Of a stretch of 64,000 bases of DNA, positions 8,234 to 63,776 are shown piece after piece (within the stretch, counting starts at the first letter, position 1; each line of letters opens with the position of its first letter). The notes beneath the pieces were generated by a model that worked only from the letters and a program-made list of their open reading frames with translations, searched no databases and was not told the origin of the DNA. The stretch comes from Verrucomicrobiia bacterium (lineage in GTDB: Bacteria > Patescibacteriota > Saccharimonadia > Saccharimonadales > JAGQNK01). The position numbers and the translations under genes are program-made. The stretch lies in contig DATHJY010000004.1 of the NCBI GenBank assembly GCA_035489575.1, positions 27,483 through 91,482 on the forward strand. Reading direction: 5' to 3'.

Positions 8234-8253
8234 GAAGGATAGCGCTCGCAAAG

Positions 8254-8287
8254 AAAAAAACCTGGCCATTTCGGCCAGGTTTTTTTC
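8254..8287. terminator. bidirectional rho-independent terminator between convergent genes
   Basis: Stem CCTGGCC (8261-8267) / GGCCAGG (8273-8279), flanked by an A-run upstream (8254-8260) and a T-run downstream (8280-8287). Confidence 0.75.
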
Positions 8288-8291
8288 TTTT

Positions 8292-8801: not shown

Positions 8802-8872
8802 CTCTAAAAATTACACTGCTATGTCTATAATGATGGTAGTATATACCATAACCAGAAAGAGAGGGAAGGGGA

Positions 8873-9033
8873 GAACCCATTTTATGTCCTCCCTCCAGCC
8901 TCAAACTATTCTGGTGGCACCCTTTGCCAGTTTTGCTTGTCGGTGTACTGCCGGTACGCCTTCGCACAAAACTGGCAAACTGCACTCACCACGATAGCTT
9001 TCGCTTAACAGAAGGAGGATATAAAATGGGTTC
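8873..9033 (+). promoter_or_regulatory. structured 5' leader RNA, copy 1 (RBS/start-sequestering; unassigned class)
   Basis: 20-bp closing helix 8873-8892 / 9014-9033 (one G-U) that contains the SD GGAGGA (9014-9019) and the ATG (9026). Inner 13-bp helix 8923-8935 / 8967-8979 and hairpin 8942-8960. Homologous to 26742-26904, with compensatory changes. Confidence 0.55.
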
Positions 9034-10087
9034 TGTGAGTTCCGCACTTGACGATCTAAAATACATTCATGAGCGTGATGCGCATGATGCTCTGGGGGTG
9101 GCGGAAAAGCAATGGCAGCAATTGCAGCAGGATTATGACCTTGGTGATTGGCAACCTTCACAGACGGTAGCTAATATTGTCCACTCGGGTATGGGCGGAT
9201 CAGCACTGTGGGCGCTTCTGAGCACCAGCTGGCCTGGCTACTCTGTACCGTTTGAAGTAGTCAGGGGCTACGATGTGCCCGCTTACGTAAACGAACACAC
9301 ACTGTTTATTGCCTCTAGCTATTCCGGCAATACCGAGGAAACACTGTCCGCACTCGCCCAGGCCGAAGAGAAAAAGGCGCAGATTGTTATTATCACATCT
9401 GGCGGCAAGCTAGCCGAGATTGCCACGCAAAAGAATTACCTGCTTATTGCACTGCCCAAAATTGATAAACCGCGATACGGGGCACTCTACGGCCTCAAGG
9501 GGATTGTAGCCTTGGCCGAGAAATTGCAACTGGCTGTCCAGCCCAATGCAACCGCCACCCTGAGCCAAGCGGCAGATTTCTTGCAAAACGAAATTACCCA
9601 GTGGGTGCCCATTGTTCCGGCTGCCAAGAACCAGGCCAAACAGCTGGCCCAAGAGCTTATGGGTAAGTCACCGGTTATGTATGGTGGTCCCTTGCTGGCC
9701 CAGGCAGCTCACAAGTGGAAGATCAGTTTTAACGAAAATGCCCAAAACGTCGCCTGGGAATATGCCTTTCCTGAGTTTAATCACAATGAATTTACGGGTT
9801 GGACATCTCACCCCGTTGATAAACCCTACGGAGTTATCTATTTGCGTTCCTCGTATGACAATGATCGTATCAAGAAGCGATTCGACCTGAGTGACAAACT
9901 GCTCAGCGGTCGCTGGCCGTCGCCTTTGCAGGTAGAGGCTAAGGGCGAAACACCCCTGCAGCAACTGCTGTGGACCGTTGCGCTTGGAGACTTTGTGAGT
10001 TTGTATCTGGCGCTGCTCAACGGTGTGAACCCCATTGAGGTTGGTGACAAAGATATCATTGAGCGCTTCAAGAGGGAGCTGGCATGA
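9026..10087 (+). CDS. bifunctional phosphoglucose/phosphomannose isomerase family (SIS domain) protein
   Basis: Start set at ATG 9026 (GAAGGAGGA upstream). SIS-type motifs GMGGSA and SYSGNTEET, with a PGI/PMI-type C-terminal half. The upstream part of ORF 8924-10087 is the leader RNA. Confidence 0.8.
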   Translation: MGSVSSALDDLKYIHERDAHDALGVAEKQWQQLQQDYDLGDWQPSQTVANIVHSGMGGSALWALLSTSWPGYSVPFEVVRGYDVPAYVNEHTLFIASSYSGNTEETLSALAQAEEKKAQIVIITSGGKLAEIATQKNYLLIALPKIDKPRYGALYGLKGIVALAEKLQLAVQPNATATLSQAADFLQNEITQWVPIVPAAKNQAKQLAQELMGKSPVMYGGPLLAQAAHKWKISFNENAQNVAWEYAFPEFNHNEFTGWTSHPVDKPYGVIYLRSSYDNDRIKKRFDLSDKLLSGRWPSPLQVEAKGETPLQQLLWTVALGDFVSLYLALLNGVNPIEVGDKDIIERFKRELA

Positions 10088-25870: not shown

Positions 25871-26461
25871 CTATTCTGGGGCGACGCCTATGAGTAGGCT
25901 GGCGTTTTTGTATTGGGTGGAGAGCGTTGCTTTTAGTTTTGTGTTGGTTGTGAGGTCGTAGGTGGATTTGACGCTTTTTTGGTAGGCGACTAGTTCGTCT
26001 TGGAGCTCTTTTAGAAAGACTTCGTCAAAGCGGTTGTTTTGTTGGGCGTTGGTGAAAAGCTGGTCGGTTTTGGCGTTCTTGCCGCCGTTCAGGAGCTTGC
26101 TAGGGGTTTTTACTTTTTGGCTGTTCAGCGTTGACTTAAGAGACGATAGATCGCTAGTTATGCTGAGGCTGGTGGTCCTGGCGAGGTTTTTGGCATTGTC
26201 GTCGCGTGATTGTTTTAGCCCGACTTCTGCAACGCGGATTAGCTCGGTTTGCTGCTGAACGACTTTAACCAGTTGCTCTTTGTTGTCGGGCGCGCCTGCA
26301 AATAGAACCATGTAGATAATAAATGGGACAAGCAAAACGGCCAGACCTATTATGGCGTATATGAACATCTTGTTTGATGACCCGCTCTTGATCGAGAACT
26401 TGGGTTTGGGGCCGTTCGGAGAGCCCATAATAAAATCGTACTGGTTTTGCTGTTGCTGCAT
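25871..26461 (-). CDS. membrane-anchored hypothetical protein
   Basis: Q-rich N-terminus, a single TM (MFIYAIIGLAVLLVPFIIYMVLF) and a polar extracytoplasmic domain. An extended -10 (TGGTACAAT) lies just upstream on the reverse strand. Confidence 0.55.
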   Translation of the reverse strand: MQQQQNQYDFIMGSPNGPKPKFSIKSGSSNKMFIYAIIGLAVLLVPFIIYMVLFAGAPDNKEQLVKVVQQQTELIRVAEVGLKQSRDDNAKNLARTTSLSITSDLSSLKSTLNSQKVKTPSKLLNGGKNAKTDQLFTNAQQNNRFDEVFLKELQDELVAYQKSVKSTYDLTTNTKLKATLSTQYKNASLLIGVAPE

Positions 26462-26498
26462 TACTTGTTATTGTACCAGCCCCACGGCCTATAGTCCG

Positions 26499-26646
26499 CG
26501 CAAAACAAAACCTGTGAATTTAGGGTGATGATCCAAGTGAGCTAGAACTGTTTGGGCCGAGTGAGGCGTATCCATTGATACGGTGAGCGAGGCATGGGCA
26601 GTTCTGGCCGCTTGGGCACAGCCTAAAACGCAGGTTTTGTTTTGTG
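26499..26646 (+). ncRNA. candidate rod-shaped structured RNA (6S-like architecture; unassigned)
   Basis: 18-bp closing helix 26499-26516 / 26629-26646 with two G-U pairs that work only on the + strand. Further helices follow (TTTAGG/CCTAAA, AGAACTG/CAGTTCT), then two ~16-nt unpaired strands around a terminal 6-bp hairpin CGTATC-CATT-GATACG. Confidence 0.3.
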
Positions 26647-26741
26647 GGGGCTATGCGCACCGCATTAGCTCTTTGGAGCGAGGGTCATGTCAGAGTGCTT
26701 ATGCTATGACGTTTGCCAGAGAAGCTATACTCTAAGAGAGT

Positions 26742-26904
26742 GAAGCTACCTTATGTCTCCCCTCCAGCCTCAGCACACTCTGGCGGTGCCCTTCGCCAGT
26801 TTTGCTTGTCAGCGTACCTACGGGTACGCTTCCGCACAAGAACTGACAAATGGCACTCACCAGAGTATTCTTCACTTAACAGAGAGAAGACATAAGGTAG
26901 CTTC
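26742..26904 (+). promoter_or_regulatory. structured 5' leader RNA, copy 2 (upstream of dnaG)
   Basis: Perfect 17-bp closing helix 26742-26758 / 26888-26904, ending 2 nt before the dnaG ATG. Hairpin 26811-26830. Aligns with 8873-9033 throughout. Confidence 0.55.
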
Positions 26905-26905
26905 T

Positions 26906-28648
26906 ATGGACGCTGTCGAAGAGGTTAAAAGCCGGTTGGCTATAGAGGACGTGTTGGGTGAATACATGACCCTCAAGCGCTCGGGTCGTAACTATAAAGG
27001 CCTCAGTCCTTTTACGGCCGAAAAATCCGCTAGCTTCATGGTTAGTCCAGAAAAACAGATCTGGCATGACTTCAGTAGTGGCAAGGGCGGGGACATGATC
27101 AGTTTTGTCATGGAGGTGGAGGGATTGGACTTCAAGGCAACCTTAGAGCTGTTGGCTCGTAAGGCCGGCGTAGACCTGAGCCAGTACCAAACCGGGCGAA
27201 ATGCTGACACGTCCAAACTAAAAGAGCGTCTGTATGAAGCGCACGAGCTGGCTACTAAGTTTTATCAAACGCAGTTCACTCGTAACCAGGGTGCTTTGCG
27301 ATACGTGCTGGAAAAGCGAGCTTTTAGCAAAAAGGTGGTGTTGGCTTTTCGTCTTGGTTATTCGCCCAATAACGGCACGGCGCTCATGGATTTTATGAAA
27401 AAAAAGGGCTTTAGCGAGGACGAACTGCAAAAGGCCGGGCTGGCCACCAAGCGCTACCGCGGCCTGGGCGATATGTTTCGTGGACGGCTGCAGATTCCCC
27501 TCATGGATGCGCAAGGCAGGGTGGTGGGCTTTACGGCTCGCTTGCTCGAGGACATACCGAATGCCCCCAAATACCTGAACACGCCCCAGACAGTACTGTA
27601 TGACAAGGGCCGGCATGTCTATGGACTGCATCTTGCAAAAGAAGGTATCCGCAAGAATGGCTATGTGGTGGTAGCCGAGGGCAACCTGGATGTTATCGCC
27701 AGCCACCAGGCAGATATCACGCAAGTGGTAGCCACGGCCGGTACGGCTCTGACAGAGATGCACCTGAAGGCCCTCAATCGTTTTACGGGCGATATCCGGC
27801 TGGCTTTTGACCAGGACCGTGCGGGGTTGGCTGCCACTGAACGCGCCATTCCCATTGCCAGCAAAGTGGGTGTGACACTGAGTATGATCACCATTCCGGA
27901 AGGCAAAGACCCAGACGAGCTGGTCAAGAAAGACCCTGACGCCTGGCGCAAAGTTATAGAAAATCACCAGTATGCGGTGGACTGGCTTATTGAACGTATC
28001 GGTGGCCAACTTGACCTAGAGAGTGCAGTGGGCAAGCGCCAGTTCAGCGATGTGGTTCTGCGGGTGGTTCGGCAGCTACCAGACCAGGTAGAGCAAGATC
28101 ATTACCTAGGGGTACTGGCCAAGCACATTGGTGCCAGTAAGCAAGCTCTAGAGCGCAAACTACAGGGGGGCGAGGAGCCAAGGACTCGTCTAAAAGCCAT
28201 CAAAGCCGACATAAAAATGGACAAGCAGGCCATTGATCAACTGAAGACCCAAAACCAGCTGCTGTGCCTCACGCTCATGCAGCCCGCTGTCCGTCATTAC
28301 CTGAAGCCGATTACCTACGACATGTTGTCAGACGAGTCGGCTCACCAATTGCTGCGCTTCTTGCAGGACAACCCACAGTTTGCGGGGGATCCCAAAGAGA
28401 GCGAGGCATTGAGAGATATTGCAGATTATGTTAAAATCCTAAGTCTACAGTTCGATGAATTATATCGACAACACGAGCTATTGGAGCTTCGTAACGAAGC
28501 CGCTCGGTTGCAAGAAAAGCTGATAAAACAATACGTTCACGACAAAAAACAGCCTCTGATCGAAGCCATGCGTACCGCAAACGAATCAGAGTCGCAAAAA
28601 CTACTCGAGCAAGCAAAAGAACTCGATAATCTACTTAAAAAGTTATAA
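26906..28648 (+). CDS. dnaG: DNA primase
   Basis: Start set at ATG 26906 ([21 protein letters not shown] is a typical primase N-terminus). Zinc-ribbon region, TOPRIM motif ([10 protein letters not shown]) and a DxD region. The 51 upstream codons in the ORF track are the leader RNA. Confidence 0.93.
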
Positions 28649-38173: not shown

Positions 38174-38337
38174 AGAGCCTGTTCCAGATCTCCAATTCCG
38201 CCCCAAAACCGCCCATTCCGGTAACAATCCGCCCTGGTTTCTGAGCCGTAACTATGGTTACGCCTCAAAACCCAGAACGAATTCTTTCTCGAAATGGATC
38301 GATTTTGGGATCGGAAGCGAGATCTGGAACAGGCTCT
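38174..38337. repeat. long inverted repeat enclosing ~90-125 nt (MITE-like element or large RNA stem)
   Basis: Perfect 19-nt arms AGAGCCTGTTCCAGATCTC (38174-38192) / GAGATCTGGAACAGGCTCT (38319-38337). Pairing extends inward (TTCCG/CGGAA, CCCAAAA/TTTTGGG). Confidence 0.5.
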
Positions 38338-40763: not shown

Positions 40764-43580
40764 CTAAGACGTCTTTTCTTGGAGCAGGTTCAAAACATGG
40801 TCACGGGTGTGGCCATGTTTTTTGCTGTAGCGTTGTATTTCGCGGATAGCCAAAAATGTGCTGGCAGCGCCCAGGGCAAGCAGCCAGTCTACAACGTCCA
40901 AAGGTCCGGTGCGGAAGTAAGGTGACAAAAGTGGGCTGTAGATAATAGCCACAATACAGAGTGTTGAGCCAGCAAAGGCAATCCACAGCTGCTTGTTATG
41001 GAACTGGTAGCGGGTAAAGAAGCCCTTGCTACTGCGTCGCTGCAAGATGTTGGCAAACTGACACAGCACGATGGTCAGGTAGGTGACGGTCGTGGCTTGT
41101 AGGTGAATAAGCGAATTTGTGTCCAGTGCGGTCGGGTCGACACCCCGGCGAATAATGGCGAACAAATAATTGGCAAACGCCAGGCTGCCGATGATCAGTC
41201 CGCAGATGATCAGATCCTGGATAGAACCACGGTTGAGGATGTGCAGGCGTGGGTTACGGGGCTGTTCTTTCATGACCTCGTGGTCGGCCTTGTCCCAGCC
41301 CAGGGCGGCAATAGGGAACAGCTCGGCTATCAGGTCAATGGCCAGAATTTGCATGACAGACAGGGCCAACGGCACACCCAGAATAGCCGCAGCTGCCAGA
41401 CTGGTCAGGTTCACCACCAGCTCGGCCAAGTTGCTGGTAAAGCAGCTGAGGGTGCCTTTTTTGATGTTCTGAAAAATAGTGCGGCCTTGCTGCACGGCAC
41501 CCACCAAGGTATGAAAACTATCGTCTAGCAGGACGATCTCGGCAGATTGTTTGGCGACATCGGTGCCGGTGATGCCCATGGCTACGCCAATATCGGCCCG
41601 CTTGAGTGCTGGGGCGTCGTTGATGCCATCGCCCGTAACGGCCACGATGTGGCCACTGTTTTTGACCAGCCCCACGATACGCAGCTTGTCCTCTGGGCTG
41701 ACTCGACTAAAGACCATGCCGCCGCGGATAGCCAGACCCAACACTTGCTCATCGGTGAGGTGTCGCAGTTCTTCGCCGGTGATAACCTTGATATCTTCTG
41801 GTTTGTCAGCTAATTTGGCTTTGACTGCAATAGCCTGAGCGGTGGTAGCAAAGTCGCCGGTAATAATAGCTACCCGGATGTTGGCGGCTCGGGCAGCAAC
41901 CATGGCCTCGGCTACGTCTTCGCGGATGGGGTCTATCATAGACACCATACCCAGGTACACCATGCGATCCTCGGCGTCCTCCATCTTTAGTGACTTTGGG
42001 TTAGTTTTGTCGGGCAGTAAGCGGTAGGCCAGGGCCAGGTTGCGCATGGCAGCGGTGGCTTGGCGCTGATGTGTGGCCAAGATGTCTTTGCGTTCTTTGG
42101 CGGTTAGCTTGCGGATATGGCCGTGATCCCATACGTCGTCACAGTGTTCTAGAATGCTTTCCGGCGCACCTTTGGCAAATAAAAAGAGTTGTTTGTCAGG
42201 ACCGTACTGCCTGACAGAACTCATGCGCTTGCGGGCAGAGTCAAAGGCAAATTCTTTGAGTTCCGGGTAGGCATGGTCTAGTTCGATGGGATTCAGGCCG
42301 GCCTTGTTGGCGAGGGTGATCAAGGCACCTTCGGTGGGATCGCCTATGACATACCAGCCGGCGTGTTGGTCGTCTGGCGCGCTGACGCGGGCATTGCTGG
42401 CAAAGGTGCCTGCCAAAAAGAATAACTCGAGGTCTTTCAGTGTCTGAGCTGCCAGGGGTTTGCTCTTGGCGTCTGTCACATGCCCATTTGCTATGTAGCC
42501 GCCACCAGTAACGGGGTACTGGTTCTTGCCGATGAACAGTTGCTCTACGGTCATCTCGTTCTTGGTCAGTGTGCCGGTTTTGTCAGTACAGATAATGCTG
42601 GTGGCGCCCAGGGTTTCTACGGCGGACAACTTTTTGACCAATGCTTTGGCTTTCACTAGCTTGTCGGCAGCTTGGGCCAGGGAAGTGTTGATCTCGGCCG
42701 GTAGCCCTTGGGGAATGAGCGAGCTCGCAATACCGATAGCAAACAGCAGGGCTTCTTTGATGCCCAGGTCTGCCTGGATGGCAATTGGCAACAAAATGGT
42801 ACACAGCACCATGGTGCCCTGGGTGACGCGCTTGGCCACGTGGTTGAGCTCGCGCTGCAAGGGGCTGAGGTCGCTCGTAACATCTGCACTCAGGGAGGCA
42901 ATGCGTCCCAGCTCGGTCTGCATGCCAGTGCCAATGACCACACCATAGCCATGGCCCAGGGCTACGGTAGTGCCCATGAACACTATGTTGTGTCGGTCGC
43001 CCAGTTCGACATGGCTAGCAATGGCGTGGGTGAATTTGCGCGACGGCTGGCTTTCGCCGGTTAGGGCAAAGTCGTTGGTGGCTAGTTCAGATTCTTCTAT
43101 CAGGCGTAGGTCTGCCGGCACTGAGTCGCCCTCTTCTATATAAACAATGTCACCAGGCACCAGGGTAGTGGCGTCGATCTCTGTCAGTTTGCCTTCGCGC
43201 AGGGCTTTGGCCCGGGTGACTACCAGCTTTTCCAGGCTGTCCATCAGTTTCTCGGCTTTGAACTCTTGTGTAAACCCAATCAGGGTATTCAACATGACTA
43301 GAGCCAGTAGGATAATACCGGTGCGGCGGTCGCCCAAAACCGTAAAGGCCAGGAGGCTGCTTGTCAGCAGCAGAACAATCATGAGGTCTTTGAACTGGCG
43401 TATGTATTTGCGCCAGGCAGGGTCTTTGTGGGCCTGGGCCAGACGGTTATAGCCGTATTGGTCTAGGCGGCCAGTGGCGTCCTTGTTGGTCAGGCCTTTT
43501 GCCGTGGTCTGTAGTTGCTTTAATACGCCACTCACCTCGAGCCGGTAGAACGACAGCTTGTCTTCTGGTAGAGAACTCAT
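40764..43580 (-). CDS. P-type cation-transporting ATPase (type II, Ca2+/Mg2+-like)
   Basis: 938 aa with the phosphorylation motif ICTDKTGTLT, TGES (LTGES), the hinge TGDGINDAPALK and ~10 TM segments. Confidence 0.93.
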   Translation of the reverse strand: MSSLPEDKLSFYRLEVSGVLKQLQTTAKGLTNKDATGRLDQYGYNRLAQAHKDPAWRKYIRQFKDLMIVLLLTSSLLAFTVLGDRRTGIILLALVMLNTLIGFTQEFKAEKLMDSLEKLVVTRAKALREGKLTEIDATTLVPGDIVYIEEGDSVPADLRLIEESELATNDFALTGESQPSRKFTHAIASHVELGDRHNIVFMGTTVALGHGYGVVIGTGMQTELGRIASLSADVTSDLSPLQRELNHVAKRVTQGTMVLCTILLPIAIQADLGIKEALLFAIGIASSLIPQGLPAEINTSLAQAADKLVKAKALVKKLSAVETLGATSIICTDKTGTLTKNEMTVEQLFIGKNQYPVTGGGYIANGHVTDAKSKPLAAQTLKDLELFFLAGTFASNARVSAPDDQHAGWYVIGDPTEGALITLANKAGLNPIELDHAYPELKEFAFDSARKRMSSVRQYGPDKQLFLFAKGAPESILEHCDDVWDHGHIRKLTAKERKDILATHQRQATAAMRNLALAYRLLPDKTNPKSLKMEDAEDRMVYLGMVSMIDPIREDVAEAMVAARAANIRVAIITGDFATTAQAIAVKAKLADKPEDIKVITGEELRHLTDEQVLGLAIRGGMVFSRVSPEDKLRIVGLVKNSGHIVAVTGDGINDAPALKRADIGVAMGITGTDVAKQSAEIVLLDDSFHTLVGAVQQGRTIFQNIKKGTLSCFTSNLAELVVNLTSLAAAAILGVPLALSVMQILAIDLIAELFPIAALGWDKADHEVMKEQPRNPRLHILNRGSIQDLIICGLIIGSLAFANYLFAIIRRGVDPTALDTNSLIHLQATTVTYLTIVLCQFANILQRRSSKGFFTRYQFHNKQLWIAFAGSTLCIVAIIYSPLLSPYFRTGPLDVVDWLLALGAASTFLAIREIQRYSKKHGHTRDHVLNLLQEKTS

Positions 43581-46567: not shown

Positions 46568-47740
46568 ATGTTAAAGCCGATAAGATTACCTGAGCCCAAG
46601 TTTACTTCTCCACTTGTCATTTCTATATGGGAGTTGGAGAAGCTTCGATACGATGGTTTCGAGGCAACGACGCCGCCTTGGCTCTTCTTTGATTTAAAGC
46701 AAATCATGCATCTACTCGAGAGCGTTCTGTCGGTACGCATAGAGGGCAATAGGACTACTTTGTACAGTGCAGTTGAGGATGTCATAGAGGGACAAAAGCC
46801 TACCTCTGACGAGCAAGTCATAGAGTGGCGCAACGTGCAGAAGGCGATAGAATTTATCGAACAGAATGCGAAACAAAGAAAAATAGACAGAGCATTTTTG
46901 AGCGAATTGCACAAGATAGTGGTTGCCGATCTCTCACCCTCAAATGAAGGGAGTAGGTCACCGGGGGTGTTCCGAAGGGGTAAGGTTAAGATTGATAAAT
47001 CTGCGTATTCACCACCTGACCCTGTCCAGGTGACTGAGCTGATGGACGAACTCTTTGAATTCATTGACTCAGAGATAGCAGGTAATCAAGACCTTCTAGT
47101 GACGGCGATCGCACATCATCGCTTCGAGGCAATACACCCTTTCGATAACGGCAACGGTAGAACTGGGCGCCTGTTAACGTATGCCATGCTGACCAAGCAA
47201 AGGTTTATAGATACAGATGGGCTAAGGCTTCTGAACCCTTCCGCAATCTTTGGGGTGGACAGAAGGCACTACTTCCAGATGCTTTCTTCGGCCGACACAG
47301 GTACCGACGACGGGCTGCTGGGTTGGTGTGAGTACGTTGTCAATGGAATAAAGGCGGAAGTATCAAGAATTGATAAACTAATGGACTTCGAGTTTGTTAA
47401 GCGCTTGATTCTGGGTCCATCCATAAAAAATGCAACCGAAAAGGGAATCTTAAGCAAAAAAGAAAAAGGAATATTAGAAATTGCCATCGAGAAGGAGCGA
47501 TACTTCCAGGCAGGTGATGTTATGCATCTGTACGGTGCAAGTCAGTCTGCGAGAACTATGACGTCTAGGGCCCTCAAGAAAATGAGAGACCAAAATTTGA
47601 TTTTAGCTCTTCCGAATAAGAAGCAGCAGTACGTTCCAAGGTTTTTCAACAATCTGTTACTGCGTGGGGTGATGCAACAACTGAACGAGCAAAAGGTCCT
47701 TCCACTGAGTTTTAGTGCATCAGATCTCGATAAGGAATAA
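46568..47740 (+). CDS. Fic family protein with N-terminal inhibitory-helix motif
   Basis: Fic motif HPFDNGNGRTGR read directly. The upstream SVRIEGN fits the (S/T)xxxE(G/N) auto-inhibition motif. The local sequence is visibly more AT-rich than its neighbours. Confidence 0.85.
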   Translation: MLKPIRLPEPKFTSPLVISIWELEKLRYDGFEATTPPWLFFDLKQIMHLLESVLSVRIEGNRTTLYSAVEDVIEGQKPTSDEQVIEWRNVQKAIEFIEQNAKQRKIDRAFLSELHKIVVADLSPSNEGSRSPGVFRRGKVKIDKSAYSPPDPVQVTELMDELFEFIDSEIAGNQDLLVTAIAHHRFEAIHPFDNGNGRTGRLLTYAMLTKQRFIDTDGLRLLNPSAIFGVDRRHYFQMLSSADTGTDDGLLGWCEYVVNGIKAEVSRIDKLMDFEFVKRLILGPSIKNATEKGILSKKEKGILEIAIEKERYFQAGDVMHLYGASQSARTMTSRALKKMRDQNLILALPNKKQQYVPRFFNNLLLRGVMQQLNEQKVLPLSFSASDLDKE

Positions 47741-57378: not shown

Positions 57379-58524
57379 GTGTCAGACAACCCCGGTCCTA
57401 TCAGCCGACTCAAGGCTCGCGCGGCCGGTGAAGTCTCCGCCGCTCCTCTTGCAAGCCGCCTTGTGGCCGGTGCCTCTAGCCGCTACGATGCCGCCACCAA
57501 GCTTGATGAAACGCTTGCCGAAGCAGGTTTCAGTCTCCACGGTTTGTGGACACTGTCACCCGCACAACAGGCCGTCGCCCAGCTTTGGTGGTTGAGTGCC
57601 GTAGGGTGGGAGACGGCTGAGCGGTTCTTTGCTCGGCTGACGTCTGCCACACAACGGCAATTCATCGATCGCGATGGAGTGCCATGGTGCGAAGGGCTGT
57701 GTGCCGCCGCCGAGACCTATACGACCGAAGCAGTTCGCTGCCAAAGTCAGGTAGAGGTCCAGGTGTCGGTGCCCCCGCCTCAGATCAAGCAGCTCAAGGA
57801 CCTCCCCGTGACCGACGACCTTGTCGCTGGAACCTGGGCAATCCTCGAGGCCATCTACGACCGTGTGCAAGAAGACCAGACTCGCTTGCTTGGTATGAAA
57901 GTGCCCAAGCGGTTCCGGCCAGTACTGCACGAGATCGTGAAGATTGTGCACCCCAACATGGCGGTGTTCGAACATCTCAGGCAGGAGTGGGACTCAGCTA
58001 CTACAGCCAGTACTCGACTGGGTGTCGTGAACCAGGGTTTCGACCCCATTCGCGCGCTCTTCCGGGCTGGCCAAATGTGCTGGGCACCCTCCCTGACTGG
58101 CCAGGTGTACCTGCAGTGTTTGCATACCCAACCAACGCTGGAAGATCTGGAGTTCGGGTTTGACCCGTGGCTCTTGACCGATCCATTGCAGCGGAAGGCT
58201 CGCGAGCCCAAGCTGGAACACCAGCAGGAACTCACGCGTTTCTGGGAGAAGGTGACTTCCCCTGGCGATGCACGTGAGGTGGCACAGCAATTGGAGCAGT
58301 GGGTTCGTAATCGCAAGATCCGGCAGCGCTGGGGACAAGGCCAAGTCATGGTTCCGTGGCCCTCGCAGTTTCTGGTGCGATACCCAGTCTCCTACGGAGG
58401 CCGATCGTTCCAGTGCGGAGATCTTATCTCTGCTTTCGTTCTTCAACAGTCCGATAAGGACTGGCAGGTAGAGATTCGTCGAACAGGACGGGTCACGGAC
58501 TTGCTGGAACTATTCGGCCAGTAG
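57379..58524 (+). CDS. hypothetical protein, no recognisable domain (centre of the Ter island)
   Basis: GTG at 57379 preceded by AAAAGGAGGGAGAG. 381 aa. Codon third positions are only moderately G/C-biased, unlike the flanking ter genes. The overlapping alternative-frame ORFs look like GC shadows. Confidence 0.55.
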   Translation: MSDNPGPISRLKARAAGEVSAAPLASRLVAGASSRYDAATKLDETLAEAGFSLHGLWTLSPAQQAVAQLWWLSAVGWETAERFFARLTSATQRQFIDRDGVPWCEGLCAAAETYTTEAVRCQSQVEVQVSVPPPQIKQLKDLPVTDDLVAGTWAILEAIYDRVQEDQTRLLGMKVPKRFRPVLHEIVKIVHPNMAVFEHLRQEWDSATTASTRLGVVNQGFDPIRALFRAGQMCWAPSLTGQVYLQCLHTQPTLEDLEFGFDPWLLTDPLQRKAREPKLEHQQELTRFWEKVTSPGDAREVAQQLEQWVRNRKIRQRWGQGQVMVPWPSQFLVRYPVSYGGRSFQCGDLISAFVLQQSDKDWQVEIRRTGRVTDLLELFGQ

Positions 58525-58591
58525 CAAGTTCACCAACCCACGGCTGATGGGTCCTCCATCAGCAACACCCAGAAACAGGAGAGTGATACCG

Positions 58592-59197
58592 ATGGATACC
58601 GTTTCCCTCGAAAAGGGCGAGAACGTCAACCTCAGCAAGATGGTCGCCGATGCAGGTGGCACCCTGACCAAGGTCAGCGTGCGCGCCGGCTGGGATGCGA
58701 AGAGCGTCAACACCACCGGTCCGGGCTTCGACATCGACATCTCGGCGTTCGTCCTCGACAAGGACCGCAAGATCCTCAGCCAGGATCCGAGGTGGTTCAT
58801 CTACTTCAAGAACCTCGACTCGCCCGACGGCTCGGTCCACCACCACGGTGACAACCTGACGGGTGCTGGCGACGATGACGACGAGATCATCGACGTCAAC
58901 CTCGATCAGCTTCCCACCATCGCCCAGCGTTCGGTCTTCTCTGCGACGGTCTTCGAGGCTGTCAAGCGGAGCCACAACTTCGGCAACATGCAGAACGCCT
59001 TCGTCCGCGTGCTGGACGACAGCACCGGCATCGAGCTGGTGCGCTACGACCTGACCGAGGACTACGCGTCCGCCATCGGCCTCGTCGTCGGCGAGCTCTA
59101 CCTCCACGACGGCGACTGGAAGTTCCGCGCCAAGGGCGACGTCTACCCCGCCGGTCTGGCCGGTCTGTGTGCCGAGCACGGCGTGGCGGTGAAGTAG
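58592..59197 (+). CDS. terD: TerD family stress protein
   Basis: Start at ATG 58592 after AGGAGAG. VSLEKGENVNLSK, GWD......GFDIDISAFVL, the Ca-binding signature HHHGDNLTGAGDDDDEII, NAFVRV, and GELY....WKFRA.G at ~200 aa make this a canonical TerD. Confidence 0.9.
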   Translation: MDTVSLEKGENVNLSKMVADAGGTLTKVSVRAGWDAKSVNTTGPGFDIDISAFVLDKDRKILSQDPRWFIYFKNLDSPDGSVHHHGDNLTGAGDDDDEIIDVNLDQLPTIAQRSVFSATVFEAVKRSHNFGNMQNAFVRVLDDSTGIELVRYDLTEDYASAIGLVVGELYLHDGDWKFRAKGDVYPAGLAGLCAEHGVAVK

Positions 59198-59373
59198 AGC
59201 CAAGTCCAGGGATCAACACCCGCTCCACCAAGGAGCACCGGCTTTGACGCCTAGCGTCTAGCCAACCCCCTAGGGGTGGTCCTCATGCTCCAGCTCCGGC
59301 TGTGAAAACTTGGACCACCCCTTTCGACTATCTGGGCATATCCATGTCCAGAGTGTTCCATCGGGAGGAATCG

Positions 59374-59598
59374 ATGGCACTGGAAAGTGACAACACCAAC
59401 GTCAAGGACGACGACTCCGGCCTGGAGCCGAAGACCGTTGCCATCCTGGTGGCGATCGCCTTCGTCGCGGGCACGCTGTTCGGCGTGGCGATTCTGCCGC
59501 TGATCATGTGGCTGGTGAGGATCGCCTTCTGGACGGCTGTGATCATCGCGATCATCGGCCTCGTCTACAAGCTCCGGCCAGGGCGTTCCCGCTCCTAG
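59374..59598 (+). CDS. small two-TM membrane protein
   Basis: ATG at 59374 after GGAGGAA. 74 aa with an acidic N-terminus, then two hydrophobic helices. Confidence 0.5.
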   Translation: MALESDNTNVKDDDSGLEPKTVAILVAIAFVAGTLFGVAILPLIMWLVRIAFWTAVIIAIIGLVYKLRPGRSRS

Positions 59599-59694
59599 CC
59601 AACCCTCATCGTGGGGGGTGAGTCTTCGGGCTCACTCCTCACACCGAGGTATCTGGACCCGGTCAGACCTGTCGGTCTCACTCGGTCCGTAGTA

Positions 59695-59741
59695 GGGTCA
59701 ACATGATTTTTTTATTCTTCCATGTTGGCCCGCTTTTTTTA
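59695..59741 (+). terminator. rho-independent terminator
   Basis: 11-bp stem GGGTCAACATG (59695-59705) / CATGTTGGCCC (59721-59731, one G-U), followed by a T-run (59734-59740). Confidence 0.7.
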
Positions 59742-59881
59742 TTCAAAATTTGGGTATAAAAATCCCCTACAACGGGGGTACGTTTGATTATTAGTATAAA
59801 AAATTTAGTACGAGTCTTCAGCGGCAGAGCAGTGGGTGGCCCCCGAGGGCAAAAAGAGCCTTTTGGGGGCCACCGTTACTG

Positions 59882-61012
59882 CTACGCGACGTGCAAGGGC
59901 GTCGAGCTGGGGACGGCGTGGTTGCCGTCGTTGGGCTCGTCGACCTCGGGGGTCGGGGGGTTCTTCTTGGTGTGCCGACGGCTGCTGATGAAGGCGGCGG
60001 TGATGAAGCCGACGCTCAGGCTACCGGTGACCCACTCGGGGATCTCGAACCGGAGGCTCAGCAGCACACACAGCGCCAAGGCGCCGATGGCCCAGTGAGC
60101 GCCATGCTCCAGGAACCGGTACTTGGTCAGGGTCTGGTGGCGGATGACGTGAACGGTCAGCGACCGCACGTGCACCGCACCGATACCCAGACCAGCCGTG
60201 ATCAGCAGCACCTTGTCGGTGAGGGCGAACGCGCCGACGACTCCGTCGAAGGAGAACGATGCGTCCAGCATCTCCAGGTACAGGAAGCTGAAGAAGCCCG
60301 CCTTGGCGGCGTTCTTGGCCAGCTGACTGCCGTTGCTGCTTTCGTCTTCCTCGTCATTCTCGAAGACGCTGTCGAAGGCGTTGACCAGCAGGTAGACGAC
60401 CAGACCGAGCAGACCGGCGAACAGCACGGCTTCCTTGTGGTCACCACCCCAGAGTGAGGCGACGGTCAGCAGTGTGAACAGGGCGACGATCACCGACACG
60501 GTGTCCAGCTTGCCGACCTTGATGAGCGGACGCTCCAGTCGTCGCAGCCAGACGATGTCCTTGTCCTCCAGGATGAAGTTGAGGAAGATCATGAACAGGA
60601 ACGTGCCGCCGAAGGCAGCTAGCTGCGGGTGGGCGGTTTCCAGGTGCTCGGCGTAGACGTGCGGGTGGTTCAGCGCCAGGTCGATGACCTCGCCAAAGCC
60701 CAGGTGGGCGGTGAGGCTGACCAGCACGACGGGGAACACGGCTCGCATGCCGATGACTGCCACGGCGATGCCGACGGTCATGAAGATCTTCTGCCACATG
60801 GGTGACATCTTCTCCAGCACCTTGGCGTTGACCACGGCGTTGTCGAAGCTGAAGACGACCTCGATGATCACCAGAGCGGTCAGCGGCAGAAGCGCTGCTG
60901 GGCCCATGGTGACGAGGATGACACCGTACAGCACGAGAGTCGTGAGCCAGGTGAAGAAGTAGATCCTGAACATGGAGTCGGGGTTCTTGACGTGATGATG
61001 CAAGAAGCGCAT
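59882..61012 (-). CDS. DUF475 / TerC-related integral membrane protein
   Basis: Start at ATG 61012 (MRFLHHH). The repeated motifs FSFDNAVVNA and ASFSFDGVVGAFALT within a polytopic membrane protein match DUF475 as remembered. Very GC-rich. Confidence 0.7.
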   Translation of the reverse strand: MRFLHHHVKNPDSMFRIYFFTWLTTLVLYGVILVTMGPAALLPLTALVIIEVVFSFDNAVVNAKVLEKMSPMWQKIFMTVGIAVAVIGMRAVFPVVLVSLTAHLGFGEVIDLALNHPHVYAEHLETAHPQLAAFGGTFLFMIFLNFILEDKDIVWLRRLERPLIKVGKLDTVSVIVALFTLLTVASLWGGDHKEAVLFAGLLGLVVYLLVNAFDSVFENDEEDESSNGSQLAKNAAKAGFFSFLYLEMLDASFSFDGVVGAFALTDKVLLITAGLGIGAVHVRSLTVHVIRHQTLTKYRFLEHGAHWAIGALALCVLLSLRFEIPEWVTGSLSVGFITAAFISSRRHTKKNPPTPEVDEPNDGNHAVPSSTPLHVA

Positions 61013-61174
61013 CAGGTTGGTGCCTTTCTCTTTGGGAACAAGCAATCACGGCACCACCTCGCGGTGATACGGCCATTGCTTGCCCCAATATGGCGAAGAC
61101 TCGTACTTTAAATGAACGATCCCACCGAAGTGAGACCAAGGCATACAATAACATAACTCAGTAGTAAAGGCAAT

Positions 61175-63512: not shown

Positions 63513-63776
63513 TTAGTCTCGGCCAGGAAGCAGACGGTCTTTGCGGATTTCACGTTGCCAGGCGGCTGGGTCTTGAATAGTTTGAAAAGGCTTCAGCGCC
63601 TGGAGCTCTTTCCATAGCTGCTGAATATACTTACGGTCCTGTACTGTGTGCTTCTGGGGCAACGTGATATCTGCCTTGTCGCCTAATTTAAGCTGCGCGT
63701 GCTCAACATATGCCTTTGGCACCCGAAGGGCATATGAATTTCCCGTCTTGATCACCGTCGTTGTGTACTTATTCAT
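63513..63776 (-). CDS. vapB: AbrB/SpoVT-fold antitoxin
   Basis: KTGNSYALRVPK is the SpoVT-AbrB loop. 87 aa, ending 4 nt before vapC. Confidence 0.8.
   Translation of the reverse strand: MNKYTTTVIKTGNSYALRVPKAYVEHAQLKLGDKADITLPQKHTVQDRKYIQQLWKELQALKPFQTIQDPAAWQREIRKDRLLPGRD

Follow-up and report, generated by a model that had tools for sequence, protein, structure and literature searches.

A palindromic DNA repeat of about 162 bp, which forms one long imperfect hairpin and is probably a non-autonomous, MITE-like mobile element, lies in front of the pgi and dnaG genes. The element inserts right at the beginning of unrelated genes, supplying a ribosome-binding site and start codon of its own, and it is a variant of the bacterial MITE/palindromic-repeat kind. 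The insertions show how a repeat invades the most sensitive part of essential genes such as dnaG, tyrS and pgi in a genome of about 1 Mb with almost no spare DNA, and the route of this invasion is that a replacement ribosome-binding site, start codon and stop codon are carried along.

Copies of the element in the window

The first-pass annotation described two stretches, 8873-9033 and 26742-26904, as copies of one structured leader. Both copies are real, and pairwise alignment confirms that they are homologous over their full length and contain all of the shared blocks quoted for them. However, the window (the whole 64-kb stretch of DNA analysed here) contains four copies in all, as shown by a covariance model (CM) search and an inverted-repeat scan; the two that had been missed are located at 26492-26653 on the minus strand and at 38175-38336 on the plus strand. 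The features are as follows.

8863..8873, plus strand: old pgi leader with the Shine-Dalgarno-like sequence GGGAAGGGGAG, unpaired, just 5' of the hairpin and conserved in the relatives L087 and L089
8873..9033, plus strand: copy 1 (main family), with the old pgi leader before it and the old start codon after it; CM score 155.6 bits; rod hairpin with a z-score of -8.5
8873..8892, plus strand: 5' arm of copy 1 (terminal inverted repeat) with the anti-Shine-Dalgarno (anti-SD) CCUCC; 20-bp complement of 9014-9033 with one G-T
8891..8903, plus strand: block CCCTCCAGCCTCA, which forms the 5' strand of the asymmetric internal loop and pairs through its first bases with the Shine-Dalgarno (SD) sequence
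8923-8935/8967-8979, plus strand: inner helix of copy 1, 13 bp, present on folding
8942..8960, plus strand: apical hairpin of copy 1, GTA-N-C...G-N-TAC
9004..9012, plus strand: block CTTAACAGA, 3' strand of the asymmetric internal loop, invariant in 13 of 13 copies
9014..9033, plus strand: 3' arm of copy 1 with the SD GGAGGA (9014-9019) and the new ATG (9026), then GGT TC, giving an 'MGS' N-terminus
9035..9037, plus strand: old pgi start codon GTG, now codon 4 of the annotated gene
26492..26653 (26491-26654 by inverted repeat), minus strand: copy 4 (w4B, diverged), 30 nt upstream of, and co-oriented with, a minus-strand gene starting at 26461
26726-26731, plus strand: -10-like TATACT, 8 nt before the junction GTG 26740
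26740..26895, plus strand: frame that stays open across copy 2; it begins with GTG 26740, a codon created at the junction, and ends with TAA 26893-26895, 10 nt before the dnaG ATG
26742..26904, plus strand: copy 2 (w2, main family), arms GAAGCTACCTTATGTCT and AGACATAAGGTAGCTTC; CM score 178.8 bits; 1 nt upstream of the native dnaG ATG 26906
38175..38336, plus strand: copy 3 (w3B, diverged), located between genes, 71 nt before ATG 38408; its arms GAGCCTGTTCCAGATCTC are perfect over 18 bp

Copy 4 has 24-nt arms that are 88% complementary and enclose 116 nt, and it scores 35.6 bits on the minus strand as compared to 7 bits on the plus strand. The orientation call is weakest for copy 3 (46.8 versus 34.3 bits). 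Copies 2 and 4 are separated by 88 nt and point in opposite directions, each towards its own gene. No transposase, integrase, RAYT or Y1 transposase is found among the 60 open reading frames (ORFs) of the window, nor does the window contain a tRNA or tmRNA.

Distribution and divergence of the family

A scan of 185,579 species-representative genomes with one sequence pattern yielded 24 stretches, five of which (L004, L010, L014, L015 and L018) still matched beyond the pattern, all of them in metagenome-assembled genomes (MAGs) of Saccharimonadia/Patescibacteria. A different, two-block pattern retrieved seven more copies from JGI metagenomes (L074-L076 and L078-L081). Thirteen full main-family copies from Saccharimonadia MAGs and metagenomes were aligned, and a covariance model was used together with an inverted-repeat scan to find diverged relatives. 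This adds four diverged copies of similar size and shape, namely the two in the window at 38175-38336 (plus) and 26492-26653 (minus), L081 3614-3772 and L004 5696-5857 (L004B), to give a set of 17 copies. The diverged copies are only 39-49% identical to one another and to the main family but have the length and rod shape in common and retain the apical hairpin GTA-N-C...G-N-TAC.

In the species genomes and JGI metagenomes, true copies come only from Saccharimonadia/Patescibacteria, and searches of the IMG/VR, phage and plasmid collections gave none. L010 and L015, which share 95% identity, belong to the same MAG. When 71 kb from eight related loci were searched with the CM without filters, no copy was detected, indicating that the distribution is patchy. 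No paper on MITEs or such repeats in Saccharibacteria or Patescibacteria was found in a literature search.

The main-family copies are 161-163 nt long and carry no transposase gene, their sole long frame being a read-through of about 50 codons without protein homologs. The best copies have terminal inverted repeats with arms of 17-21 bp that are perfect or nearly so, and the arms are more degraded in L075, L078 and L080. Small size, terminal inverted repeats, dispersed copies within a genome and presence or absence at orthologous sites are all features of MITEs.

Hairpin structure and compensatory base pairing

Copies 1 and 2 align end to end, and the mean column identity is 84% in the pairwise alignment and 76% in the alignment of 17 copies. 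Each is predicted to fold into a single long rod, copy 1 having a free energy of -85.7 kcal/mol and a z-score of -8.5, and copy 2 one of -75.5 kcal/mol with a z-score of -6.9; 0 of 200 shuffles are as good in either case. The closing helices are as originally described: 8873-8892 pairs with 9014-9033 over 20 bp with one G-T in copy 1, and 26742-26758 pairs with 26888-26904 over 17 bp without a mismatch in copy 2. These two helices differ at four positions on both sides. The 13-bp inner helix and the apical hairpin, which had also been proposed from copies 1 and 2, are present as well.

RNAalifold on the 13 main-family copies gives one rod of 49 pairs. Both-side changes occur in 31 of these pairs, as compared to 16.4 in shuffled alignments, and 88.7% of cells are paired, as compared to 76.9% in shuffles and 32-45% when the partners are slid; none of 500 shuffles attains any one of these values. 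The covariation claimed from two copies is therefore real, and the pairings are preserved in further homologs. The structure is thus supported by covariation, as that of a cis-regulatory leader would be, and by analogy with REPINs (PMC3116915) such covariation is equally expected of mobile hairpin DNA. The kept pairing need not reflect a riboswitch-like function, and it may be maintained by a mobilisation process that needs the folded strand, as proposed for REPINs, or by template switching within the palindrome. This calls for caution in RNA discovery: full-length covariation combined with burial of the SD sequence looks riboswitch-like, yet both are expected of mobile hairpin DNA too.

The arms vary among copies yet stay complementary, and the internal loops and the apex are conserved. 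CCCTCCAGCCTCA is identical in all 14 main-family sequences, an invariance that was largely set by the searches, since both collection scans demanded 10-13 of its 13 bases. CTTAACAGA is also invariant in the genome-scan copies, whose search did not require it, and in the asymmetric internal loop CCCUCCAGCCUCA/CUUAACAGA, the block CUUAACAGA is invariant even where the search did not demand it. The long 3' block GCACTCACCA...CTTAACAGA occurs in the window only in copies 1 and 2, with 0 occurrences expected by chance. The apical GTA-N-C...G-N-TAC is the only motif common to all 17 copies and all subfamilies, and the fourth stem pair of this hairpin covaries (C-G, U-A or G-C among the 13 aligned copies and A-U in w3B). 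Variable arms combined with invariant loops are the opposite of the classical MITE pattern, since inverted repeats bound by a transposase would show the reverse.

Filled, remnant and empty sites at pgi and dnaG

A three-way alignment at pgi captures a full element in the window, a remnant in L087 and an empty site in L089. L087, the 93%-identical relative, retains only a 34-nt remnant, GAGTTCGTTATTCTGGCTAATAGAGAGGATATGA, between flanks that are almost identical to those of the window. L089 (78%) represents a true empty site, in which the gene follows directly on the homologous leader gatggtagtatataacataacc...agagggaag, and L088 (76%) also lacks the element at pgi. The pgi orthologs with 93% and 85% identity are 350 residues long and begin MSSSLDD and VSSALDD, whereas the gene called in the window encodes a 353-residue product starting MGSVSS. 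The ortholog starts correspond to GTG 9035 right after the element, indicating that the 'MGS' prefix in the window is derived from the element. N-termini of the 'MGS...' type should hence be annotated as element-derived, with the true ancestral starts adjoining the element.

The dnaG orthologs all begin MDAVEE. In L084 (79% identity), which is syntenic (YjbR, a divergent 208-aa gene, dnaG), the intergenic region is only 39 nt long and consists of TACAAT-8nt-ATG without any element. L082 and L083 (76%) have 100 nt before dnaG, with a terminator and TACAAT-11nt-ATG and again no element, and in P0002, the closest dnaG relative (87%), the intergenic region of 62 nt is too short for the element. 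The corresponding region in the window is 444 nt long and is filled by copies 4 and 2. Thus, the element is not conserved upstream of the orthologous genes, as a riboswitch or leader would be, and it is likely to be a mobile insertion rather than a conserved regulator.

Insertion sites and orientation

The main-family copies lie approximately -3 to +19 nt from the original start codon of unrelated genes. These encode PGI/PMI, DnaG, an FtsX-like permease, a membrane protein, aminopeptidase N, MazF/PemK and TyrRS, so that the functional unrelatedness first noticed for two operons holds for the tabulated host genes. Five copies (L010, L015, L018, L075 and L081) are intragenic and lie within the first codons. 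When the element and one repeat are removed, an upstream ATG or GTG comes in frame with the gene in all five of them.

Perfect 3-bp direct repeats flank five of the 17 copies: L010 (TAA), L015 (TAA), L018 (AGT), L081 (ATT) and L004B (TAA). About 0.7 such repeats are predicted by mismatched flank pairs, in which the left flank of one copy is combined with the right flank of another, and none is seen when the boundaries are shifted by 1-2 nt. The other 12 copies have no perfect flanking repeat, four of them matching at two of three positions. The duplications TAA, AGT and ATT share no single target motif.

In w2, L010, L015, L075, L078 and L081, a -10-like hexamer precedes the old start or the start formed at the junction by 6-8 nt. 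Judged by the match to the consensus, this spacing looks leaderless.

Each of the 17 copies has the orientation of the gene downstream of it, and all 13 main-family copies lie in or at the 5' end of the mRNA. The diverged copies w4B and L004B are located upstream of the likely -10 box of their gene and hence outside the mRNA. A replication-strand bias is excluded as the cause of the uniform orientation, since copies 2 and 4 are adjacent but opposite. A mobile structured element landing next to start codons had been offered in the first-pass annotation as a fallback, and the data support it; its prediction of random orientation failed.

Three points fit a plain MITE poorly, namely the uniform orientation, the invariant asymmetric loops and the lack of a transposase among the ORFs of the window. 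In view of these, an RNA-level function and a directional insertion that recognises structure are both possible. Likewise, it is possible that an RNA-level constraint or a transcription-coupled insertion lies behind the co-orientation. If a protein partner is behind both the orientation bias and the invariant loops, the element would be a natural, portable cassette for translation control in a phylum whose regulation is almost unknown.

Translation signals carried by the element

In 10 of the 13 main-family copies, the 3' arm supplies GGAG (GAAAG in L018), followed 6-8 nt further on by ATG or GTG and then by GGTTC-like bases in the frame of the host gene. The 3' arms of w2, L074 and L080 have no start codon. 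The 5' arm is the complement of the 3' arm and includes the anti-SD CCUCC. Burial of both the SD sequence and the start codon, as originally proposed, applies to copy 1 (GGAGGA at 9014-9019, ATG at 9026) but not to copy 2, which buries only an AAGG Shine-Dalgarno and leaves the dnaG ATG at 26906, 1 nt after its end, outside the helix.

A through-frame of about 50 codons, read as CCT CCA GCC TCA, is open across the element in 8 of the 13 copies. It ends at a conserved TGA or TAA, which is 0-4 nt before the new start in most copies and 10 nt before it in w2. The through-frame is intact in all five intragenic insertions as compared to three of the eight others (Fisher about 0.04). In copy 1 this frame is broken by two 1-nt deletions, yet the helix is kept at 20 bp; a small ORF, the frame noticed in the first-pass annotation, runs instead from ATG 8884 to TAG 8997 (8884-8997), 10 nt downstream of a GGAG that arose where the old leader meets the element. 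An alternative frame without stops that runs into dnaG exists in copy 2 alone. The reverse complement also offers an open frame, a terminal stop, an SD sequence and an ATG because of the symmetry of the palindrome.

These observations can be accommodated by a translational relay, which has slightly less than an even chance of being the actual mechanism. Ribosomes would initiate at the old, often leaderless-type, start codon and then translate through the element, thereby melting the closing helix of 17-20 bp in which the new SD sequence and AUG are buried. They would terminate beside the new AUG and re-initiate there, and hence gene expression would stay tied to the original initiation signals. 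Host genes may tolerate the element because translation is relayed through it. For copy 1 at pgi, the ORF at 8884-8997, driven by the old SD sequence, would open the helix instead; alternatively, the 20-bp stem may be cleaved by RNase III, as reported for Correia elements. The logic of the relay cannot explain the orientation bias, since the reverse complement is equally equipped with frame, stop, SD sequence and ATG.

A more far-reaching version of the mobile-element reading, which we regard as unlikely, holds that the element is a self-contained mobile module for translation initiation that targets start regions in a strand-specific manner, for example at the single-stranded bubble of a leaderless promoter. 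The invariant loops and the apical palindrome would then be the putative binding site of a Saccharimonadia mobilising enzyme or RNA-binding regulator, and the copies would be transposons and portable switches at the same time, sequestering SD and AUG and placing unrelated genes under common control.

Alternative explanations for the conserved hairpin

A cis-regulatory RNA, that is, a riboswitch-like or protein-binding leader that sequesters the SD sequence and AUG in response to a global signal, and that perhaps spread by mobility before it was co-opted, is an improbable explanation. Such an RNA would account for the uniform co-orientation of all 17 copies, for the position of the 13 main-family copies in or at the 5' end of the mRNA, for the invariance of the asymmetric loop block CUUAACAGA beside variable arms, for the strong covariation and for the SD:anti-SD pairing inside a very stable helix. 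Two G-U positions kept in 8 of the 13 copies point in the same direction. However, the element is absent or decayed at the same genes in relatives with 76-93% identity, the downstream genes are unrelated, and w4B and L004B lie outside the mRNA. The U-G pairs of the apical hairpin had been taken as evidence for a plus-strand RNA, and this argument fails across the family: A-C oppositions in the helix cells of the 13 copies are at least as common as G-U pairs (41 versus 34, or 41 versus 18 without the two fixed G-U columns), so that the strand-specific signature of an RNA, in which G-U is tolerated and A-C avoided, is not seen. A search of the whole window against Rfam 15 at gathering thresholds gave no match, in agreement with the first-pass impression that no described RNA family fits, and relaxed E-value thresholds returned only miRNA and snoRNA noise at both loci. 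The reading preferred in that annotation, a leader under a global signal or an RNA-binding regulator, is not supported, in view of the absent element or 34-nt stub in relatives, the unrelated genes and the lack of any G-U over A-C bias.

It is quite improbable that the element is REPIN-like and is mobilised in folded, single-stranded form by an HUH/Y1-type enzyme or another enzyme that recognises structure, with the hairpin as the substrate and the 3-bp repeats reflecting a target preference rather than staggered cuts. Pairing that is kept along the full length while the sequence drifts, similar frequencies of G-U and A-C as expected for DNA, and an apical palindrome GTA-N-C...G-N-TAC kept in all subfamilies would all suit such a process, and compensatory changes have a precedent in REPINs (PMC3116915). 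Against it stand the perfect 3-bp repeats located exactly at the boundaries of 5 of the 17 copies, and the missing Y1 transposase among the 60 window ORFs. IS200/IS605-type and REPIN elements are not known to make flanking direct repeats. REPINs have conserved ends and a variable spacer, the reverse of the pattern found here, and the opposite orientation of the adjacent copies 2 and 4 excludes the replication-strand bias.

A small protein or leader peptide of about 50 residues (..NPFHTSPPAS..QFCSS.YL..SLNR.EI), duplicated before several genes and translationally coupled to them, is hardly credible: in its favour are a frame open in 8 of 13 copies and a stop codon that, in most of these, precedes the next start by 0-4 nt (10 nt in w2), but the frame is broken in the other 5, its start codon lies in flanking host DNA or at the junction at a position that varies among copies, the conserved blocks are invariant at third codon positions, its profile has no match among 5.8 billion proteins, and an equivalent open frame exists on the reverse complement purely from the symmetry of the palindrome. 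The element therefore has neither its own start signals for this frame nor a protein-level pattern or homologs. That the conservation is not at the protein level, as first stated on the basis of a single frame, agrees with the missing profile match and the invariant third positions, but another frame, open in 8 of the 13 copies, had been overlooked.

Several more specific candidates were rejected. A prfB-like +1 frameshift joining the through-frame to the host gene is incompatible with the varying offset between stop and restart, as the ATG of L081 comes immediately after the TAA and in frame with it, and the others have TGA-A-ATG. A bypass of the T4 gene 60 type with the 3-nt repeats as take-off and landing codons fails because the repeats are out of codon register and no stop follows the 'take-off'. 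As an integron attC site, the element would have its RYYYAAC-like CTTAAC at the wrong end and without a partner box. The arms are not inverted copies of the start of the target gene, since most arms share one consensus before unrelated genes and the empty dnaG sites reconstruct without an arm. A terminator/antiterminator switch, suggested by a CTGGYGG...GCCAG + UUUUGCUUGU hairpin in copies 1 and 2, is not kept in other copies, and an internal outward promoter (CTGACA-17-TATTCT in copy 2) has a -10 that is not conserved elsewhere.

Comparison with known systems

The mobile palindromic repeat is most readily compared with the bacterial MITEs reviewed in PMC10969869. Like these, it is small, contains no transposase gene, has terminal inverted repeats and forms a long hairpin when transcribed, and it shows dispersed copies, insertion polymorphism between relatives and, in some copies, short flanking duplications. 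Unlike MITEs, its arms vary while the internal loops and the apex are conserved; the main-family copies cluster within about 20 nt of start codons, all in the orientation of the gene, and the 3' arm supplies an SD sequence and a start codon. It also has no known parent insertion sequence. The words 'ribosome' and 'start codon' are absent from the full text of the MITE review (PMC10969869).

The Rickettsia palindromic elements are repeats of about 150 bp in a small-genome bacterium that are tolerated inside coding genes with an open frame through the repeat (PMC10969869). The element described here shares the palindromic nature, the tolerance in genes and the open frame. However, the Rickettsia elements are translated in frame within the host protein, whereas here the through-frame ends at a TGA or TAA in the 3' arm and the host gene restarts from the SD sequence and ATG of the element, in another frame in most copies. 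In addition, the element and its duplication together amount to 166 nt, which is not a multiple of 3, and insertion is restricted to the leader or the opening codons.

Correia and ERIC elements, in contrast to the co-oriented copies described here, occur in both orientations. These inverted-repeat elements of Neisseria and enterobacteria, respectively, are 100-155 bp long, similar in size to the present element, and are co-transcribed with their neighbours, so that processing of the RNA hairpins by RNase III or RNase E alters the fate of the mRNA (PMC10969869). That review does not describe them as donors of a ribosome-binding site and start codon, which the element here supplies, and no sequence similarity to them was found (no Rfam, plasmid or phage match).

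REPINs, which are REP doublets mobilised by RAYTs, are likewise mobile hairpin-forming DNA in which compensatory changes on both sides of the hairpin are common (PMC3116915). REPINs lie outside genes, with invariant ends around a variable spacer and no flanking duplications, and are accompanied by a RAYT gene. In contrast, the present element has varying ends and invariant loops, enters coding regions and is flanked by 3-bp repeats in some copies, with no RAYT in the window.

Translational coupling through a structured ribosome-binding site is found, for example, in the cistrons of phage MS2 and in synthetic bicistronic designs. The element resembles these systems in that the downstream SD sequence and AUG are locked in a helix, the other strand of which lies inside an upstream ORF that stops beside the start. 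In those systems the module is a fixed feature of an operon, whereas here it is a portable repeat through which the downstream gene would be coupled to its original initiation signals.

Additional copies of the element

The first-pass annotation recorded only two copies of the palindromic element in the window; two more are present, both of the same size and each with its own distinct arms:

26491-26654, minus strand, palindromic element, copy 4
38174-38337, plus strand, palindromic element, copy 3

The divergent dnaG intergenic region holds copies 4 and 2 back to back, and L081, another element-bearing locus, also contains two elements, with 58 nt between them. Other inverted repeats were seen in the window. 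At 8250-8290, two convergent genes are separated by a perfect 18-bp palindrome (AAAGAAAAAAACCTGGCC / GGCCAGGTTTTTTTCTTT), probably a bidirectional intrinsic terminator. An inverted repeat at 63543-63674, with 17-nt arms that are 88% complementary and separated by 98 nt, adjoins a PIN-domain gene.

Element ends and host gene starts

In L087, a 93%-identical relative, a 34-nt element remnant is located 5' of pgi (651-684), and the sole Shine-Dalgarno sequence before this gene is the element-derived GAGGA. The remnant may be the footprint of an excision, or it may have been left by a deletion that ran from one direct repeat to the other (TGGGTTC, TGAGTTC). The 3' end of the element is often resembled by the host gene's own start, as in the window and in the element-bearing loci L079 and L075:

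window 9026-9042, TGGGTTC/TGAGTTC
L079 7752-7775, ATGGAT, twice
L075 flanks, GGTACAA, twice

Insertion may favour targets that look like the element's end, or local gene conversion may account for the likeness.

Many genes in these genomes have a -10-like hexamer just 6-8 nt 5' of the start codon (flanks of copies 2 and 4 in the window, of L010, L015, L075, L078 and L081, and of L004B, the diverged copy in L004; also 1370-1384 of L084, a syntenic dnaG relative without the element), suggesting from sequence that leaderless or near-leaderless mRNAs are widespread in this Saccharimonadia lineage.

Lineage and accessory genes

The NCBI name for the 100%-identical DnaG (window 26906-28645) is 'Verrucomicrobiae bacterium', and other close matches are named 'Limnocylindria'. 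Both synteny and every one of the relatives assign the window to Saccharimonadia, so these entries look like mislabelled MAG bins. The following are ordinary accessory genes and serve as context only:

57379-61045, tellurite-resistance-type cluster
58547-59197, TerD, within the cluster
59882-61045, DUF475/TerC-family membrane protein, within the cluster
46568-47740, Fic-domain protein, outside the cluster
40764-43580, P-type cation ATPase, outside the cluster

Alternative structure and reading frame in copies 1 and 2

In copies 1 and 2, CTGGYGG..GCCAG and then TTTTGCTTGT make up an alternative hairpin resembling a terminator, which is not kept in the other element copies:

8911-8940, plus strand, hairpin in copy 1
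26780-26809, plus strand, hairpin in copy 2

Copy 2 is also crossed by a second stop-free frame, which runs from ATG 26753 directly into dnaG (26753-28648, plus strand). With this frame, a DnaG carrying an element-encoded 51-aa N-terminal extension would be formally possible, and such an extension of a host protein would liken copy 2 to an RPE.
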